Positions 4,821-60,760 of a stretch of 64,000 bases of DNA are shown one piece after another. Source of the DNA: a virus (taxonomy: Duplodnaviria > Caudoviricetes). The DNA lies in IMG/VR virus record IMGVR_UViG_3300045958_000007, positions 1 to 64,000 of that record; one strand, given 5' to 3'. Each line of letters begins with the position of its first letter. Positions within the stretch are counted from its first letter, which is position 1. The position numbers and the translations under genes were made by a program. Under the pieces are notes generated by a model. It ran no database searches and was not told the DNA's origin. It saw only the letters and a program-made list of their open reading frames with translations.

Positions 4821-5936
4821 TTACGCCCCGGGAACCGCGGGCACCGCGCTCAGGATGTCGGCCAGCGCGCCGCTCGGCGCCGCGAGCGCCGTGCCGGGGA
4901 TGAAGCTCGATGCCCCGTAGCTTGGCATCCAGAGCGATCCCGAGGAGTAGGGCGTGAACCCCTCGGGGGCCCCGCCGGTCGCCCCCATGCTGTTGAGACC
5001 TTGCATCATCCCTGCGCCCATGGCCGCGTTGCCGATGCCGCTGAGGGCGCCTGACCACGCATTCGCGCCGCCCATGATCCCGGCCGCCTGCGCGTTGGCC
5101 GCGCCGGTGCGGAAGTTGCCTGCCATCTGCGCACCCTGAAGTCCGGTGTTGCCGATGTACTCGTTACCCTGCATCGCGACGTTCGACTTGAGCCCGGCGC
5201 CCTGCAAATTGGTGTTGGCCGCGAGATTCGCAAGCGAGGTGAGCTCGCCGCCATAGATGCCGCCGGCCTGAATCGCCTGCTGGTTCGCGGTGGTGCCGAG
5301 TCCCGCGAGCGAGAGGTAGCCCTGCTGGTTGGTGTTGAACGTCGAGAGCGCGCGGTTGTAAGCGTTCTGGTAGCTGGTTCCGGCGAGGCCCTGCGCGTAG
5401 TTCTCGGTGGCCTTGAGCGCCGCCCCGGACTGCAGCATGCCCCGCGCCGCCTGCGAGTTGCCGAGGGCCTTCATGCCCTGCTGTAGCTGGAACTGATAGC
5501 CCGGGTCGTTCTGCAGCTCCTGCGGATTGAAGCTGAAGGTTCCGGCGGTCGATTGGAGCTTGTTGAGCCCGTAGGTTCCGGCGGCCTGATAGGGCTGGAG
5601 GCCCCCGGTCATTCCGGCGTAGATTCCGGCCTGCGCGGTACCGGCGTTCCCGATGGCCGTGTTGGCGGCGCCTACTCCGGTGTCGATCGCGGTATTGGCC
5701 TGCCCCATGCCGGCATAGCCGGCGTCAATTGCCTGCCCGGCGGCCTTGTCCACCGCGCCCGCCGCAGCCTGCCCGGCCGCGGCCTGCGCCTTCGCCGCCC
5801 GGCTGGCCGCCGACGATCCGATGATGCCTCCAATGAGGGAGGTGCCGGCCGAGATCGCCGAGAACGGGTCCATCAGGCGCACTCCGGCCGGATCGCCGAG
5901 GGGGAACATCTCGGCCAGTTGATTTTTCGTTAGCAT
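4821..5936 (-). CDS. DNA transfer/ejection protein (P22 gp7-like)
   Basis: G/A/Q-rich; N-terminal AISAGTSLIGGIIGSSAASRAAKAQ, DPGYQFQLQQG motif; ATG 5936 overlaps upstream stop (alternative ATG 5873). Confidence 0.65.
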   Translation of the reverse strand: MLTKNQLAEMFPLGDPAGVRLMDPFSAISAGTSLIGGIIGSSAASRAAKAQAAAGQAAAGAVDKAAGQAIDAGYAGMGQANTAIDTGVGAANTAIGNAGTAQAGIYAGMTGGLQPYQAAGTYGLNKLQSTAGTFSFNPQELQNDPGYQFQLQQGMKALGNSQAARGMLQSGAALKATENYAQGLAGTSYQNAYNRALSTFNTNQQGYLSLAGLGTTANQQAIQAGGIYGGELTSLANLAANTNLQGAGLKSNVAMQGNEYIGNTGLQGAQMAGNFRTGAANAQAAGIMGGANAWSGALSGIGNAAMGAGMMQGLNSMGATGGAPEGFTPYSSGSLWMPSYGASSFIPGTALAAPSGALADILSAVPAVPGA

Positions 5937-14329: not shown

Positions 14330-15283
14330 TCAGTAAACCAGCATCACGGGCCCAACGCTGGCCGTGAAGGTCGTAGTCGGAGTGATCGCGGCCAGGGTGC
14401 CGAACGTGCCCGTCTGCGAGCCCGTCCCGTAGTTGGTGGGGGCGCCGGCGGTGGCGTAGGCCTGGAACGTGTCGGTGGTGCCGTTCCCCTGGAGCGCGAT
14501 GAAATAGGTCTGCGGACCCACCACCCGCACCGTCGAAGTGAAGTTGATGCATTGGTACTTCGAGGCGGTGGCGGTGGTAGTTCCGGCGGTGGCGGTATTC
14601 GCGATCAGGGCTCCCGAGGAGTCGTAGAGCGCGAAAATCCACTTATCGGTGGCGACCGTCGCACCGTTCAGCACGCACGCGCCCGTGAGGGTCGCATCGT
14701 TGCCGATGTTGAGCTGGGAGAACCAGATCTTACCGGCCACGTCGGTCACGGAGGCGTTACTGATGGCGGTCGGCGGAACGAAGGTGGAGAACGCGGTAAA
14801 CGGCTGCGTCTGGAGCTCCGGCAGGTGGCCGTGCTGCCACGCGCCGGCCACGCAATAGTTCCAGTGGCCGGTGCGGACGTTGAGCCGCGGGTTGTTGACG
14901 AGCGCCGAGGCGGTGCAGGCGCCGGAGGCGTCGTTCGGGCCGTTGTCGAAATAGCCCGGAGGCCCGAAGTAGACGAGTTCGCCGACGAGGTGCGCGGTAC
15001 GCATGCTGCCGTTCTGGCCGCGGCGGACGGTCCAGATGTTGCCGGTGACGTTGGCGACGACTTCCATGTATTCCCGGCCCACGAAGAGGCCGGTCATGAC
15101 CTGGTTGTTGGTGCCGAGAGCCGCAACGCTGATGGTATTGGGCGAGCCGCCGGTGGAGGCCGAGAGCACGATCATGGTGTCCTTGGCCGACATGGGGGAG
15201 GCGATGGTGACCTGCGGGGTGACTTCCTGCGCGAACGCGAAAGCCACCAGCAGAAGAGTGGAGGCAATCAGTTTTTGAAGCAT
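14330..15283 (-). CDS. Probable capsid decoration/accessory virion protein with Sec signal peptide
   Basis: First gene after coat; MLQKLIASTLLLVAFAFA-QEV; module EYMEV...TVRRGQNGSMRTAHLVGELV shared with tailspike N-terminus. Confidence 0.6.
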   Translation of the reverse strand: MLQKLIASTLLLVAFAFAQEVTPQVTIASPMSAKDTMIVLSASTGGSPNTISVAALGTNNQVMTGLFVGREYMEVVANVTGNIWTVRRGQNGSMRTAHLVGELVYFGPPGYFDNGPNDASGACTASALVNNPRLNVRTGHWNYCVAGAWQHGHLPELQTQPFTAFSTFVPPTAISNASVTDVAGKIWFSQLNIGNDATLTGACVLNGATVATDKWIFALYDSSGALIANTATAGTTTATASKYQCINFTSTVRVVGPQTYFIALQGNGTTDTFQAYATAGAPTNYGTGSQTGTFGTLAAITPTTTFTASVGPVMLVY

Positions 15284-15357: not shown

Positions 15358-16614
15358 TTAGCCGCAGATGCGCACGCCCCAGTCGCCGCGCTGCGCAACC
15401 CAGCCGAACATGATGTCGCAGCGGGTAGCAAAGATGTCGTTCACGATGTCGTACTGGGACACCGTGCGGATCGACATCCCGGTGGCGGGATCGGTGGCGC
15501 GCTTCGCCATCTCGACCGCGCGGGGCAGGTCGAGCGGCACGCAGGCCCAGGCGTAGGCTTCCTTGTGGAAGGCCATCGCCTGCGGGGTCAGCGTTCCGGC
15601 GGTGCCGAACAGGGTCAACGCCGCGCCGGAGAGCGGAGTCGTGTTGCAGGTGGCATACGGATTCGGCAGGCCGTTGTTGTTGGTGCCGACCGCGATCGCC
15701 GGGTAGATGGGCACCACGCCGTTGCCCGAGCCGTCCGCGTTCACCGGAGCGGTGACCACGAACTGCCGCAGATCGCTCAGGGTGTCGCCCGAAACCGGGT
15801 TCACCGCGTAGATCGGGGTGCCCCCGACGCCGAGCGTGAACACGTCGCCGGCGTTATAGACGTTCTGCGCGTTGGGGGTGAGGCCGTTGATGACGAGGGC
15901 GCTGCCGGTCTGGCCCGCGCCGTTGACGACCGGGGTGCCCGCGCCCGAGCCGATCGTGTGGGTGCGGATGTTCTGGGCGAGCAGCCAGTCGAAGCCGGCG
16001 CCGGTGCCCATCCGCCCTTTGAGGTACTGCTTTTTGATCTGCTCCGAGCTCTGGAACAGGCCTTTCAGGGTATCGATGATCTGGGTCTGGAACTTCGACG
16101 CGATCACCATGTACCGCTGCTCGTCGATCGGCGCCGAATTGCGGTCCAGGGCCTCGAGAGCGGAGAGGTACGTCTGGAAGGCGGTCGAGCCGTTGGGCAC
16201 GCTGCCGGGGGTGCCGACCACGTTCGGAGTAGCCTGGTAGGCCACGGTGAGGCCGACCACTTCGGCGGCGTTCGACAGCGCGATCGCCGCGCCTTCGATG
16301 TAGCGTTCGCCGATGCGGTCGATCGAGAGCGTCTGTTCGGCCGAGGTGAAGCTGAAAGCGGTGTGCTTGCGCTGGTTGATGACCAGCGGGATTTTCCGCT
16401 CTTCGACGTCCTGGATGACCAGGTTGGCGCCGTCGACGGCAGCGAATCGCACCGGATCCCGGAGCGAAAGGGTGTCGCCGATCTTGGCGCCCGGTTTGGC
16501 GAAGTGCTCGGACCAGTCTTCGTGGTGAACGGCTTTGGCAAAGCCGAGGTTGTTTTGGAAGCGCCGCAGCAGTTCGTTGGTGATGATCTGCGGCGTAAGA
16601 ATCGTATTGGACAA
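15358..16614 (-). CDS. Major capsid protein, P22 gp5-like
   Basis: 418 aa; MSNTILTPQIITNELLRRFQNNL, KIGDTLSLRDP, AFHKEAYA, TRCDIMFGW. Confidence 0.9.
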   Translation of the reverse strand: MSNTILTPQIITNELLRRFQNNLGFAKAVHHEDWSEHFAKPGAKIGDTLSLRDPVRFAAVDGANLVIQDVEERKIPLVINQRKHTAFSFTSAEQTLSIDRIGERYIEGAAIALSNAAEVVGLTVAYQATPNVVGTPGSVPNGSTAFQTYLSALEALDRNSAPIDEQRYMVIASKFQTQIIDTLKGLFQSSEQIKKQYLKGRMGTGAGFDWLLAQNIRTHTIGSGAGTPVVNGAGQTGSALVINGLTPNAQNVYNAGDVFTLGVGGTPIYAVNPVSGDTLSDLRQFVVTAPVNADGSGNGVVPIYPAIAVGTNNNGLPNPYATCNTTPLSGAALTLFGTAGTLTPQAMAFHKEAYAWACVPLDLPRAVEMAKRATDPATGMSIRTVSQYDIVNDIFATRCDIMFGWVAQRGDWGVRICG

Positions 16615-16620
16615 GGGGAC

Positions 16621-17733
16621 TTACCTTTTCTTGAGCTGCGCCTCCCGCGCTTTGACCCACTTGGCGTAATCGTTGGCGTCCTGGTCCGACATGGGATCGG
16701 CTTGAGGGGCTAATGGTCTTCCGCCGAGGTGGGCGGGAGGGCGCGAGGCGCGCGATGGCTGTTGTTTCGGTTGCGGTTTTGGGGCAGGCTTCGGCGCTGC
16801 GGCTCCGGGCTTGGCGGCGCCCTTATCGGCGGCGGCGCCCTTGGCGGGCGGCGCAATCCGGGTGCGGATCTCTCCGAGCAGCATGCCGGCGCGGGCGAGG
16901 GCGACCCCCCATTCGCGCTCGTTGGTGGCGAGCGTCGAGCGGGCGATCTTCTCGGACTCCTCCGGGTGCTGGCCGAGGTAGTAGGCGATCTCGGTGCCGG
17001 CTTCCGGGTCCATGCGCATCACGGACTCCATGGCGGCCGAGATCTTCACCGCGGGATTGGCAACGACCTCGTTGTAATCGGCAAACCTTGCGGCGGCGCG
17101 ATTCCATTCGGCCTGCGCGGAAGTCCGCGCGTGCTCTTCCTCGAGGGCCTGCTTCTGCTTCGCCAGGGCGGCGGCTACCTTGCGCTCGGTGAGCGCCTGG
17201 TTGTAGGCGTCGAGCGCCTCCTCGTACTGGTCCCAGGCGGATTTCTCGTCGGTGTCCTCGAAGTCCCGTAGCATCGGGCGGGCGAGCGGCTTGTCCGCCT
17301 CCTCGTCCACTGTTTCCGTGGAGGACGCTGCTTCCTCCGTAGCTTCCTCTCCCTCCTCCCCTCTGGTGAGGGCATCGAGGCGGGATTGGAGCTCCGCGAT
17401 TGTGCCGGTCAGCTTCCGCATGCGCCGGGCGAGGCGCTTATCCTTCTCGGGCTCCTGTTCCTGGGCGGCCTGTACTTCTTCCTGCTCCGCTTCTCCCCCG
17501 GGCTCCGACTCCGTGGCGCTTTGGCCCTCCCGGATTTCTTCTTCTTCCTCGGAGGACTCGGATGGCGGCGTGACTCTGGCGCCCGCCGCGGGCGCTTCTT
17601 CTTCCTGCTCTTCGGCCTTCGCCGGCACCTCGCCGGTCTCGCGGAAAGCCACGAAGGATTCGTAATCCTCCGGGATCTCTACATAGTCCTGGTCGGTCTG
17701 GGCGACGAGGGCGTCAGTTAGTTCGGACTGCAT
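16621..17733 (-). CDS. Scaffolding protein
   Basis: Acidic N-half, PLARPMLRDFE, C-terminal DYAKWVKAREAQLKKR; directly upstream of coat. Confidence 0.75.
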   Translation of the reverse strand: MQSELTDALVAQTDQDYVEIPEDYESFVAFRETGEVPAKAEEQEEEAPAAGARVTPPSESSEEEEEIREGQSATESEPGGEAEQEEVQAAQEQEPEKDKRLARRMRKLTGTIAELQSRLDALTRGEEGEEATEEAASSTETVDEEADKPLARPMLRDFEDTDEKSAWDQYEEALDAYNQALTERKVAAALAKQKQALEEEHARTSAQAEWNRAAARFADYNEVVANPAVKISAAMESVMRMDPEAGTEIAYYLGQHPEESEKIARSTLATNEREWGVALARAGMLLGEIRTRIAPPAKGAAADKGAAKPGAAAPKPAPKPQPKQQPSRASRPPAHLGGRPLAPQADPMSDQDANDYAKWVKAREAQLKKR

Positions 17734-17813
17734 GCGTTTGGGTGTTTCTCCAATGCGGGGATGTTCGCGGCGTACAAAGCCCACCGCTGGGCGGGTACTG
17801 CTGAAGTCGTGAG

Positions 17814-53438: not shown

Positions 53439-53672
53439 ATGGCAAACCAGTTCATTCCGGTGGTGACGATTGCGCACGAGGTCTACCTGAGTGCGATCGC
53501 CAACGGGGCGACGCGGGCGAAGGCCCTGGACCTGGCTCGGAGGTTCGCCGGCTCTCACTGCCTGGCCCGCGGCGGAGCGCATAGGTTCTCCGACGACGAG
53601 ATCCGGCTCGGGGTCTGCGATTGCGAGGGTTGCCGAGCCTCCCGCAGCCTCCCCGAAAGGCCCGCACCCTGA
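53439..53672 (+). CDS. Small protein with coat-like N-terminus
   Basis: RBS agggagag; MANQFIPVVTIAHEVY. Confidence 0.5.
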   Translation: MANQFIPVVTIAHEVYLSAIANGATRAKALDLARRFAGSHCLARGGAHRFSDDEIRLGVCDCEGCRASRSLPERPAP

Positions 53673-54865: not shown

Positions 54866-55438
54866 ATGGATCTCGGGCTCAAAGCACTCGACGACGACCA
54901 ACTGATCGAGCTGCTCGGCCAATGCTGCAACGAGCTGGCCGAGCGCGATCCCGTGGTGCGCGACCTGGCGCAGAGCGCCATCTTCGGTGAGGCCGAAAAG
55001 CTGCGGCTCATGAAGGAGAGCGCCAAGGAGGCCGTCGAGGAGGCGCGGAGCGAGTACATCGAGGATCTCCATCGCGAGGTCGGCGCCGAGGTGCGGCGGG
55101 CGGTCCAGGCCGGCGAAATCCGGCTACTGAGCCCGGCCGAGGAATCGCGCGAGGTGGCGATCGGCGACCTGGAGACGCGGGTGAAGTTGCTCGACGAGGA
55201 GATTTCGACCCTGGAGGACGAGGACGACCCCGAGGCGCTCTTTCGCCTGCGGTATGCCAACGGGTATCTGGAGGCCGATGTGCGGCTGGGCGGCTTTGAG
55301 CAGCGCCGCTACCGGGTCGAACTGAGCGAGAGCCAAATGTCGGTGTTCGCCGGGAGCATCCTGCAGGGTCTCAAGCGGCGACCGGCTGACGGCGCAACTC
55401 GTCCAATCTTTCGGCCAGGGCTTGTCGCGCCTTGGTAG
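54866..55438 (+). CDS. Acidic helical hypothetical protein
   Basis: ATG 54866 just after VWA stop. Confidence 0.55.
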   Translation: MDLGLKALDDDQLIELLGQCCNELAERDPVVRDLAQSAIFGEAEKLRLMKESAKEAVEEARSEYIEDLHREVGAEVRRAVQAGEIRLLSPAEESREVAIGDLETRVKLLDEEISTLEDEDDPEALFRLRYANGYLEADVRLGGFEQRRYRVELSESQMSVFAGSILQGLKRRPADGATRPIFRPGLVAPW

Positions 55439-56027
55439 CGAGCGCCAGCCGCCGGCTTGGCCTGGGTTTCCGCTCGATGCCCTGTGTGAAGCCGAAGAGC
55501 ACAGAGTAGCGCGTCCTCCATGTGTCGATTAGGGGGTCATAGGCCTGGATGACGCGCACCGATAGATTCGCACCGGTGCAGCGGGAAGCGCCGTCATGGC
55601 TAAGTGCCGCTGGCAAATCCAGCTCGCCGGTGACCAGTTTGGAGCCGAATTTCCACCCTTTCGTGATGCGCGGCAGGAAGTGTTGCCGCACCATCGGGCC
55701 GAGGCGCCGCCAGGTGAAGCTCAGGATGCCGTCGGAGGGGTCCGAATCCACGTCCACGCAGAAATTGTGGAGCGCCACCATCTCGAAAGACGTGCTCCCC
55801 ATGATCTCCGGGAACGATGGCGGGGTGTTCTCCCACGGGGCGAAGTCGACGCGGAAAGGCCGAGGGATGCGGACGTGGGCGAAGGACGAAAAGGGGGATC
55901 CCGGGGCCGCGCCGGTGATAAAGCCCCGCTCGACCACGATCATCGCCCCGTAGTTCGCGAGCTCGTCGCCGAGTACGCGGCAGAATTCGTGCGCGATGGT
56001 CTGGGGGGTGAGACGGGCGGCCGGCAT
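55371..56027 (-). CDS. Internally deleted major-capsid-protein paralog
   Basis: LTPQTIAHEFCRVL N-terminus; LDLP...LSVRVIQAYD...TRYSVLFGF aligns ungapped with coat C-terminus. Confidence 0.75.
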   Translation of the reverse strand: MPAARLTPQTIAHEFCRVLGDELANYGAMIVVERGFITGAAPGSPFSSFAHVRIPRPFRVDFAPWENTPPSFPEIMGSTSFEMVALHNFCVDVDSDPSDGILSFTWRRLGPMVRQHFLPRITKGWKFGSKLVTGELDLPAALSHDGASRCTGANLSVRVIQAYDPLIDTWRTRYSVLFGFTQGIERKPRPSRRLALATKARQALAERLDELRRQPVAA

Positions 56028-56214: not shown

Positions 56215-56517
56215 TCATTTGCTCTCCTCGGCCTTCGTTCTTGCGGCGAACGCCGCCCCGCCCAGCTTCGCGATCGCCCGCCGGCGCCGCGGCGAGACCT
56301 TCATGCGCGCGCCCTGGCGCAGGTTCGGGTCGGCTCGCCAGCACCCGCAGGAAACGGTATTGCCCGCGATCAGGTTCTTGCTCGATACCAGCTTGGCGTT
56401 GCCGCACTCACAGGAGCACGGCCAGCAGGCGCGGCCGTTGCGGATGACCGGCTCGGCGTGTCTTGAGATGGTGAGGCGGCCGAAGGTTCGGCCGCGCAGG
56501 TCGGTAACGGCTCCCAT
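56215..56517 (-). CDS. Homing-endonuclease-associated Cys domain without nuclease domain
   Basis: DLRGRTFGRLTI...WPCSCECGN...L.AG.TVSCGC then basic RRRAIAKLGG. Confidence 0.65.
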   Translation of the reverse strand: MGAVTDLRGRTFGRLTISRHAEPVIRNGRACWPCSCECGNAKLVSSKNLIAGNTVSCGCWRADPNLRQGARMKVSPRRRRAIAKLGGAAFAARTKAEESK

Positions 56518-59986: not shown

Positions 59987-60760
59987 CTACTTCACCTCCA
60001 CATAGGTTCCGCCGGCCAACTCCGCGCCGGGGATCTCGGTGCCCGCCTTGAGGTCCGCCTTCGCCCGCGTCTTGTCCACTTCCGCGCGCGGCGACTTCAC
60101 CGCGTCGAGCACCTGCGCCCGGACGTCCAGGTCCAGAGAATCGACCATCAATTCCCACGTCTCCGCCGGAAGCGTTACGGTCACCCGCTTGTACTTGGCC
60201 GGGATCGCCGCCTCGTCTGTCACGTTGAGGCTCTTGTCGCATCCGTGCAGCCCGAGCGTGAGAGTGCGTCCCTCCAGCTTCTTGCGCTTGCCCTTGGGGT
60301 CGGTGCCGAGGGTCTCGATGATCCGGGTGATGTAGCCGTCCAGCCGGTCGAGGGCGCGCTCGTAGAGTTCCTGGCGCTCGGTGAGCCGCTGCCGCTCGGA
60401 TTTGGCGACGGCGATTTGGGAAACCAGATGCAGCCGGAACTGGCCCACGCGATCGCGTTTCTCAACCACCTGAGTCAGCGTCTCCCGCAGTTCGATCTCG
60501 TACTGCTGCTCCATCTCGGCGGAGACCGCCTCCTCGGTGTCGAGGAGGGCGGCCAAGTGCATTTCGAGGTCGTACAGCGTCCGCGCCACGGGCGGCGCCG
60601 GGGGCTCCGCGGCGGCAAGGCGGGTGGTCGATCCGCCCGCCTCCTTCACCTTCTGCTCGAAGCTCTGGGCGTCCGTCTCGGTCTCGAAGCGGTACACCTG
60701 ATGGTCCGGGGTCTCGATCACCACCGGCCCGTGCGGCACTACAGCGAGTGGGGTAGCCAT
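59987..60760 (-). CDS. Siphovirus Gp157-like protein
   Basis: RTLYDLE, IPAKYKRVTV, VDKTRAKADLKAGTEIPGAEL. Confidence 0.75.
   Translation of the reverse strand: MATPLAVVPHGPVVIETPDHQVYRFETETDAQSFEQKVKEAGGSTTRLAAAEPPAPPVARTLYDLEMHLAALLDTEEAVSAEMEQQYEIELRETLTQVVEKRDRVGQFRLHLVSQIAVAKSERQRLTERQELYERALDRLDGYITRIIETLGTDPKGKRKKLEGRTLTLGLHGCDKSLNVTDEAAIPAKYKRVTVTLPAETWELMVDSLDLDVRAQVLDAVKSPRAEVDKTRAKADLKAGTEIPGAELAGGTYVEVK

Follow-up and report, generated by a model that had tools for sequence, protein, structure and literature searches.

What does a phage do with half of a major coat protein, encoded far from the genes that build its head? The question is raised by a 218-codon gene in the window analyzed here, a 64-kb stretch of DNA (64,000 nucleotides) from the IMG/VR virus record IMGVR_UViG_3300045958_000007. 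The full record is 72,928 bp long, has a GC content of 66%, and is rated 100% complete by CheckV; the public runs that hold it are soil metagenomes, with no RNA run among them. A first-pass annotation, made without database searches, had described the product of this gene as a half-size paralog of the phage's own coat. We find that the protein, referred to below as the mini-coat, genuinely derives from a P22-type (PF11651) coat by deletion of the A and I domains and has at least 12 relatives in soil phage contigs. It is part of a multipart cassette and not a lone mimic, as a vWA protein and scaffold-like helical proteins are nearly always present beside it. As for what it does, the reading that we tentatively favor is that the mini-coat may be a capsid-assembly mimic acting on P22-type procapsids.

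A P22-type coat without its A and I domains

The mini-coat open reading frame (ORF) has a GC content at third codon positions (GC3) that fits coding in a genome of this composition. BLASTP aligned its product to the full-length coat of the window over an ungapped C-terminal block with 14 identities in 45 positions (pairwise E value of 3e-5), reproducing the number of identities counted in the first-pass annotation. The same block was the best non-self match when the coat was compared by tblastn with the six frames of the window (E value of 0.005) and also in the whole 72.9-kb record (E value of 0.003). The N-terminal match claimed at the same time could not be upheld by BLAST, since its 9 identities in 23 positions are not significant alone (E values of 1.7 to 7.9), but it held at the profile level: the hidden Markov model (HMM) of the mini-coats matched the window's own coat with an E value of 6e-24 in two collinear pieces, with positions 2 to 112 falling on coat residues 4 to 117 and positions 129 to 175 on coat residues 363 to 409. 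Coat residues ~118 to 352, which form the A and I domains, have no counterpart in the mini-coat. The central gap noticed at first is thus real, although both the alignment and the HMM put it at roughly 235 residues and not at about 200. Within the window, 38.8 kb separate the coat gene from the mini-coat gene, in agreement with the 39 kb first given for the distance from the head genes.

A phmmer search of 1.84 billion cluster representatives returned nine full-length relatives of 201 to 231 amino acids (aa), with E values from 1e-22 to 6e-4. Loci fetched from related phages, designated here by L numbers, added further members in L020 and L021 and a broken copy in L011. Altogether, eleven intact full-length frames of 201 to 231 aa are available, plus one partial copy that ends at a contig edge. 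Most of the 60 phmmer matches were long, multistretch Kelch-repeat proteins sharing "YDPxxDTW" and were dropped as spurious. Residues ~160 to 180 of the mini-coat (55488-55550, "AYDPLIDTWRTR") mimic the Kelch-repeat signature, so that HMMER and PDB searches return Kelch proteins by the dozen, a trap for automated annotation. Neither a word-indexed protein search nor a tblastn comparison with 50,697 phages, cultured or deposited, recovered anything but the query; the mini-coat relatives came to light only in the exhaustive HMMER search, and scanning with a pattern taken from the mini-coat alignment revealed no further viral loci.

Identity among family members is only 22 to 49%, yet the deletion boundaries and the linker that bridges them are common to all. 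In the ten-member alignment, M1, L6, G27, W125, G128, G179, and R201 are invariant, and the linker takes the form W-x-(F/P)-G throughout the family, with both W125 and G128 retained. The window protein alone had no Pfam match at an E value of ≤1, and PHROGs contains no model for the mini-coat. PF11651 was nonetheless matched individually by 5 of the 10 members (best E value of 4.6e-4), and the family profile, run against 5.8 billion proteins, matched PF11651 coats with E values down to 6e-28. Comparison of the family with 30 coats by hhalign gave a probability of 99.7% and an E value of 8e-27, bearing out the proposal that the 218-aa ORF derives from a capsid protein. A functional coat has a complete HK97 fold with an A domain and the P22-specific I domain; the mini-coat has neither of these domains.

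The predicted fold tells the same story. An AlphaFold2 model built from a 43-row alignment (pLDDT of 87.2, pTM of 0.74) contains the HK97 elements in canonical order, i.e., N-arm, E-loop hairpin, spine helix, and P-domain sheet, and the A- and I-domain elements are absent from it (Table 1). Residues 29 to 95 of the model align to coat residues ~27 to 95. The best solved match found by VIA-align was the P22 procapsid coat (8i1v_A, Z score of 12.9, with 180 residues aligned over chain residues 2 to 430), followed by P22, CUS-3, and Sf6 coats, other HK97 coats, and encapsulins at Z scores of 6 to 10. The top PDB matches of Foldseek, all on the P-strand block, were the CUS-3, Sf6, and P22 coats and a mycobacteriophage coat (E values of 3e-3 to 5e-2), with nothing in the PDB at an E value of ≤1e-3, and capsid proteins in BFVD matched the model at an E value of 1e-5. 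Searching PDB sequences with the family profile yielded Kelch artifacts and one weak capsid match only (8zdh, E value of 0.37). The relation to the coat, which the first-pass annotation had left to profile and fold comparison, therefore stands on both counts, whereas its description of the protein as "P-domain only" does not, because the N-arm, E-loop, and spine helix are kept too. What the mini-coat keeps is the half of the HK97 fold through which subunits contact one another and the scaffold; it is without the A domain, which forms the capsomer center, and the I domain. The best-conserved parts of the family are these assembly-contact elements, namely, the N-arm, the spine helix, and the P-strands. 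At the C-terminus, a helix of ~35 residues that is absent from full coats stands in for the last 12 residues of the coat.

A maximum-likelihood tree placed the ten mini-coats on one side of a single branch and 33 coats on the other, with support of 100/100 and long terminal branches. Because of this single bipartition and the shared linker, we infer one old deletion event. Over 182 shared columns, identity between the mini-coat and the coat of its own phage is 22%, and the mean on the same columns is 30% between mini-coats versus 49% between coats. The mini-coat thus belongs to an old, separate group and is not a recent paralog of its own coat. For the closest mini-coat pairs, the ratio of nonsynonymous to synonymous substitution rates (dN/dS) was 0.32 to 0.55, rough values since dS is saturated. 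Between the window and L003, dN was 0.71 for the mini-coat, 0.28 for the neighboring mid gene, and 0.35 for the vWA gene; between L004 and L008, the corresponding values were 0.50, 0.26, and 0.11. The mini-coat thus exceeds its neighbors in dN by a factor of 2 to 4.6 in both close phage pairs. Judged from such sequence comparisons, the mini-coat is under constraint and yet evolving fast. In the complete genome G001 (90,044 bp), the copy in L011 has lost HMM positions 138 to 187 and changed frame, with the vWA and mid genes intact; the broken copy still reads "...LERLKAA*" at its C-terminus. Because this copy is broken, the mini-coat is dispensable in at least one lineage.

Such a damaged copy is what would be expected if the mini-coat were the functionless, decaying remnant of a second, captured capsid gene, and the several other small coat fragments in these genomes and the high substitution rates point the same way. 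Even so, this explanation is nearly excluded. The same deletion boundaries and the invariant W/G linker recur across such divergent members, eleven full-length frames are intact, the members form a single old group, the fold is confidently predicted, and synteny is conserved. Decay, which had been named at the outset as the outcome that would undo the proposal, is not what the homologs display: most of them have intact open frames, and dN/dS is below 1.

Table 1. Positions of the mini-coat gene, its structural elements, and associated genes in the window
Feature	Position	Strand	Basis
Mini-coat gene, 218 aa + stop	55371..56027	-	ORF, GC3 0.80, ATG start, family alignment, hhalign, AlphaFold2
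N-arm helix, residues 8-23	55959..56006	-	AlphaFold2, alignments, hhalign; collinear with coat N-arm
E-loop and first P-domain strands, residues 29-95	55743..55943	-	AlphaFold2 strands 29-32, 37-39, 48-54, 80-95
Spine helix, residues 101-123	55659..55727	-	AlphaFold2 helix; aligned to coat "TLSIDRIGERYIEGAAIAL" region
Linker W125-K-F-G128 in place of ~235 A/I-domain residues	55644..55655	-	Alignment gap
P-domain beta strands, residues 131-180	55488..55637	-	BLASTP block; HMM 129-175 on coat 363-409; Foldseek
Family-specific C-terminal helix, residues 192-213, and terminal Ala-Ala	55374..55454	-	AlphaFold2; alignment
vWA gene, 200 aa	54258..54860	+	Intact metal ion-dependent adhesion site, MIDAS (D-V-S-P-S, G-S-T-N, S-D-G)
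mid gene, 190 aa, acidic (pI 4.6), helical	54866..55438	+	Alignments, AlphaFold2, charge
106-aa ORF, Tat-like leader and coat N-arm-like segment	53753..54073	+	Directly upstream of vWA; tblastn, homologs
Second, weaker coat-derived ORF, 188 aa	35278..35844	-	GC3 0.79; N-arm-like helix through spine helix "LELDQFARRYLLPVAVSLASAA" only
Full-length P22-type major coat gene	15358..16614	-	PF11651 E 9e-33 (full length); phrog_283 E 1e-62
Scaffolding-type protein gene	16621..17784	-	Upstream of coat, acidic helical sequence; C-terminal motif DANDYAKWVKAREAQL

The vWA-mid cassette and other coat-derived fragments

Two genes on the opposite strand accompany the mini-coat gene in the window, one encoding a vWA protein and the other an acidic helical protein that we call mid. 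All three are linked in the window and in L003, L004, L007, L008/L009, L011, L020, and L021, and linkage of mid and mini-coat is also seen in L005. L003 has the convergent layout of the window, and the genes are co-oriented in the other loci with all three. The constant pair is vWA-mid: of the loci with sufficient flanking sequence, roughly half have the mini-coat, and many vWA-mid loci are without it. Literature searches on truncated HK97 proteins, capsid decoys, and combinations of HK97 and vWA proteins turned up no description of such a family, and the recurrence of the cassette in related phages agrees with the initial suspicion of an undescribed conserved module.

In the vWA alignment, D44, S46, S48, T106, and D128 are invariant, and the MIDAS motif DxSxS...T...D is present. 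Its Pfam matches are below threshold (VWA_3, VWA_2, and CoxE, E value of 1e-3), and its closest Atlas clusters, by structure and by feature neighbors, are phage VWA proteins. The mid protein, which has more than 42 homologs, begins with the invariant N-terminus MDLGL..L.DDQL.EL...C.EL..RD and carries C-termini of two kinds across the family; AlphaFold2 predicts long helices and a small beta-beta-beta-alpha domain for the mid of the window. Matches of mid to Pfam and PHROG were at chance level only, there was no PDB match and no Atlas feature match, and structure searches returned generic long-helix matches only, at Z scores of ≤5.7. In several loci, mid is tandemly duplicated two or three times (L007 8982-10000, L018 1349-2384, L023 5546-7219, and L025 4557-5789). 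These tandem copies have conserved N-termini and differing C-terminal domains, as would be expected for interchangeable specificity modules.

The mid and mini-coat genes of the window converge with a 3′ overlap of 68 nucleotides (nt) (55371-55438), which is 59 nt in L003 (4008-4066); an antisense overlap of the two transcripts would follow if both were made. No meaningful flanking repeats that might explain inversion of the mini-coat gene were found, and the surroundings of the cassette yielded no promoter-like site and one weak terminator-like site.

Beyond the three genes, further ORFs in these phages carry pieces of the coat. The first-pass annotation had listed two more coat-like fragments within 2.6 kb of the mini-coat, one of which, the 106-aa ORF upstream of vWA, proved sound by way of its homologs. 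By inspection, this ORF opens with a leader resembling those of the twin-arginine translocation (Tat) pathway (N-R-R-G-F-L, a hydrophobic stretch, and A-G-A), followed by the conserved LDPERLLW.PG.RLISIPAP and then by the coat N-arm-like segment. Its match to coat residues 5 to 47 is weak alone (E values of 0.07 to 0.09 against the window), and the coat HMM matched its L003 homolog (5520-5786) at an E value of 1e-6; other homologs are found in L012 (2273-2677) and, as three tandem ORFs, in L019 (1452-1736, 1730-1975, and 2181-2720). A "spliced" reading of the 106-aa ORF, with the N-arm joined to coat residues 349 to 361, was no better supported than the collinear match to residues 5 to 47. The other fragment, probably the plus-strand ORF "MANQFIPVVTIAHEVY" at 53439-53672, had no profile support and was set aside.

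At least six ORFs thus join a Tat-like RRxF leader to coat pieces just upstream of vWA. The pieces differ and correspond to the N-arm, to an E-loop strand, or to the spine helix with P-strands, and the segment LDPERLLW.PG.KLISIP is conserved after the leader in three leader ORFs. Their presence raises the possibility that the coat half has been exapted away from capsids and serves as a mere stable fold, for instance, in an envelope or periplasmic complex with vWA and the leader-bearing fragments. vWA proteins commonly act at envelopes, and the six or more leader ORFs beside vWA (window, L003, L012, and three in L019) would suit such a complex. There is also a precedent for the reuse of HK97 pieces in Family 4 encapsulins, which have the A domain only (PMC8346489). 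We nonetheless regard this explanation as rather unlikely: the mini-coat itself has no leader, conservation is highest exactly in the assembly-contact elements, and some mids carry a scaffold-like motif (see below).

A second, weaker coat-derived ORF of the window lies far from both the coat and the cassette. It matched mini-coat HMM positions 5 to 112 with an E value of 7e-4 among 1019 window ORFs and the coat HMM with an E value of 0.002. Other fragments are seen in related loci. A 97-aa ORF in L012 (1987-2280, +) consists of the I domain only (coat HMM positions 221 to 318, E value of 7e-11) and adjoins a leader plus P-domain fragment and the vWA gene. Homologous ORFs in L012 (7535-7906, +) and L015 (10380-10781, +) combine a coat N-arm, a four-cysteine, Zn-ribbon-like insert, and a "KIGxTxNxxRP" strand; they make up a small family of their own, consisting of early genes derived from the coat. 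A Cys-rich 100-aa ORF (56215-56517, -) lies immediately upstream of the mini-coat gene; it matches only an internal part (191 to 260 of 617) of an HNH-endonuclease PHROG with an E value of 7e-16 and has a homolog in the same place in L003 (2919-3239).

Structural genes for the tailspike, a head-closure protein, coat, scaffold, and portal occupy 2.7 to 25 kb on the minus strand, the large terminase gene lies at 28.8 to 30.4 kb, and two DNA methyltransferase genes are located beyond the structural genes. The window also encodes an integrase (40.6 to 41.6 kb), an excisionase-like regulator, a radical-SAM/HNH protein, a Mu Gam-like protein (59990-60760), and an endolysin-like protein. From this gene content, the virus is a temperate phage with a P22-type head. 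A full-length P22 coat is also present in the cassette phages with enough sequence, i.e., the window, L007, and G001. Sec-type signal peptides, which are odd for head-cluster genes, open the gene just after the coat in the window (14330-15283, -) and its G001 counterpart (L014 474-1493, -), and a 169-aa gene adjoining the cassette in L008 (4854-5363, -) likewise starts with one. Pattern searches of GTDB genomes found nothing for mid and a single, partial relative of the cassette vWA, in a Bryobacteraceae metagenome-assembled genome (L027 1659-2114; DATGII010000232.1). This relative in an acidobacterial genome and the soil origin of all contigs hint at Acidobacteriota as hosts.

Possible roles in capsid assembly

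A link between the cassette and head assembly is suggested by the C-termini of some mids. In P22-type phages, the C-terminus of the scaffold is the coat-binding element, and the N-arm of the coat is its site. The mids of L004 and L008 end in D-x-(K/R)-D-Y-x-x-(W/F)-L-(K/R)-x-R-E, and their tails match the last 19 to 20 residues of the window scaffold (DANDYAKWVKAREAQLKKR) with BLASTP E values of 0.003 to 0.005, the top match in each comparison. The mid of G001 carries DTEDWLTAR, which resembles the motif DTAKWLKER of G001's own scaffold. The alignment of mids compared with the scaffold by hhalign gave no significant match.

On this basis, the mini-coat would be the capsid-recognizing subunit of the cassette. 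Its N-arm and P-domain would bind coat subunits, the C-terminal helix of the scaffold, or both, and, being unable to complete a capsomer, it would cap, poison, or reroute assembly. The mini-coat is basic (pI of 9.6), while mid and the scaffold are strongly acidic, and it probably pairs with the acidic mid. Mids carrying the C-terminal motif of the scaffold may compete with it, as SaPI CpmB does, and the metal site of vWA probably grips the acidic, invariant DDQ motif at the N-terminus of mid. As targets, we favor rival phages or satellites with P22-type coats over the phage's own essential pathway, with fine-tuning or cargo loading of its own particles as a close second. A target outside the phage's own essential assembly is suggested because the cassette is dispensable, fast evolving, variably placed, and found in integrase-bearing phages.

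Several observations weigh against this proposal. The scaffold-like motif, which among 333,157 scanned residues occurs only in the mids of L004 and L008 and at the scaffold C-termini of the window and G001 (L014), is short, and the pattern used for the scan was written post hoc from the matching sequences. The mid of the window carries the other type of tail, the small beta domain, in place of a scaffold-like motif. With only 22% identity between the mini-coat and its own coat, coat specificity is unreadable from the sequence. The leader-bearing coat fragments beside vWA look exported by a Tat-like route, judging from their N-termini, and fit a purely cytoplasmic target poorly. PADLOC had no match for the mini-coat, vWA, or the fragments and only a chance-level LeoB match for mid (E value of 0.044). 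Finally, warfare between phages explains the late or structural-cluster position of the cassette in L004, L007, and L008 no better than a role in the phage's own virion does.

The placement of the cassette varies: it lies beside the integrase gene in G001, has structural genes around it in L007 and L008, and occurs in the window among small genes of the Gam-like kind. Because the cassettes of relatives often lie in late or structural clusters (L004, L007, and L008), the earlier idea that the mini-coat is expressed before assembly cannot be generalized; the functions first offered for it (decoy, poison, or capsid-size modulator) are likewise proposals. In an own-virion role, mid would enter the procapsid through its scaffold-like tail and bring vWA along as packaged or ejected cargo, or the mini-coat would be an assembly or size cofactor for the unusually large (73- to 90-kb) P22-coat capsids. 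The cassette sits amid structural, tail, or internal-protein genes in all three of these loci and is co-oriented with them in L004 and L008; a scaffold-like motif ends some mids, and that of G001 resembles the motif of its own scaffold. In addition, the genomes bearing the cassette measure 73 to 90 kb, compared with 33 to 41 kb for the closest cultured P22-coat phages, whose coats are only 32 to 37% identical to that of the window. We nevertheless consider this role, the main rival of our reading, improbable: G001 has a broken mini-coat and many vWA-mid loci have none; in the window, L003, and G001, the genes around the cassette are of early type or belong to lysogeny; and its evolution is fast, unlike that of structural partners.

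The C-terminal Ala-Ala of the mini-coat bears on another explanation. This ending is found in 8 of the 10 family members, versus 11 of 157 plausible window ORFs, and could act as an ssrA-like signal if the mini-coat were an antidefense decoy or adaptor that binds a host sensor of HK97-fold coats and neutralizes it by sequestration or by delivery to ClpXP. Capsid-sensing defenses are established (CapRel, Lit, and PifA), a coat mimic unable to assemble and evolving fast would suit such a function, and neighboring accessory regions of relatives hold candidates, e.g., a weak Tad2-like match in L015. Set against this are the properties of the known capsid sensors, which are activated by coat binding, so that a mimic would be expected to trigger rather than block them. 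Moreover, Ala-Ala termini are common in this GC-rich genome, no defense or antidefense family was matched by PADLOC, and the scaffold-like mids would be left unexplained. An antidefense function thus seems quite unlikely to us.

The preferred reading, in which the cassette interferes with P22-type procapsid assembly, can also be extended to the other coat-derived ORFs. A constant vWA and coiled-coil platform would then be armed with interchangeable capsid pieces that serve as dominant-negative poisons or as baits in the capsid assembly of rival P22-type phages or satellites, these pieces being the mini-coat without its A domain, the Tat-leader fragments, the I-domain-only ORF, and the N-arm plus Zn-ribbon ORFs. 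This extended version strikes us as doubtful; if true, it would describe a modular, fast-evolving, previously unrecognized means of warfare between phages, built from the phage's own structural gene.

Significance and comparison with known systems

To our knowledge, only satellites are known to encode capsid homologs or alternative scaffolds that take over head assembly (Ccm, CpmB, Sid, and TcaP), and the one natural truncation of the HK97 fold described so far, that of the Family 4 encapsulins, keeps the opposite half. The mini-coats show that a gene for the contact-making half of a coat can be kept by complete phages as a conserved unit in its own right, tied to vWA and a scaffold-like partner. 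Should it act on assembly, the mini-coat would be a natural dominant-negative inhibitor of, or targeting handle for, P22-type capsids, would help to clarify the part that N-arm, P-domain, and scaffold contacts play in driving assembly, and would make competition over capsid assembly, between phages or between phage and satellite, open to direct testing. The P22 nanocage field, where cargo is already loaded via the scaffold C-terminus, might then find a use for it.

The nearest relatives of one component are stand-alone phage vWA proteins of ~190 to 200 aa, since the cassette vWA falls in viral clusters of such proteins. One of these is encoded in the early region of MW202444; these relatives are without linkage to mid or mini-coat genes.

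With the P22-type coats themselves (P22 gp5, Sf6 gp5, and CUS-3), the mini-coat shares homology over the N-arm, E-loop, spine helix, and P-domain strands. It differs from them by the ~235 missing residues, the new C-terminal helix, and a basic instead of an acidic charge, lies outside the head cluster, and groups apart from all full-length coats. By known geometry, it should be unable to form a closed capsomer.

Ccm of SaPIbov5 is a capsid-protein homolog that redirects capsid assembly of the helper phage (PMC8569155, PMC5052747). As with the mini-coat, a second capsid homolog is encoded apart from the functional head genes and is thought to coassemble with the real coat. Ccm has a full HK97 fold with a delta-like domain, is encoded by a satellite, and has a function shown by genetics and cryo-electron microscopy (PMC8569155, PMC5052747). 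The mini-coat, in contrast, is half-size, linked to vWA, unrelated to Ccm in sequence, and encoded by a complete phage, with a role that is proposed. A satellite would be without its own full set of head genes, whereas portal, scaffold, coat, terminase, tailspike, and integrase genes are all present in this record.

CpmB of SaPI1 serves as an alternative scaffold, vying with that of the phage for the coat site (PMC5644958). The mids of L004, L008, and L011 resemble it in being helical and in ending with a motif like the C-terminus of the phage scaffold. The two have no sequence relation, however, the mid of the window has a different C-terminal domain, and competition by mids is a proposal only.

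Family 4 encapsulins, finally, retain nothing of the HK97 fold but the A domain (PMC8346489). Like the mini-coat, they are naturally truncated HK97-fold proteins that form a conserved family in small operons. The half that is kept is the opposite one, as the mini-coat retains all but the A and I domains, and the settings differ as well: Family 4 encapsulins occur in archaeal and Bacteroidota hosts with enzyme partners, whereas the mini-coat occurs in soil phages with vWA and coiled-coil partners.

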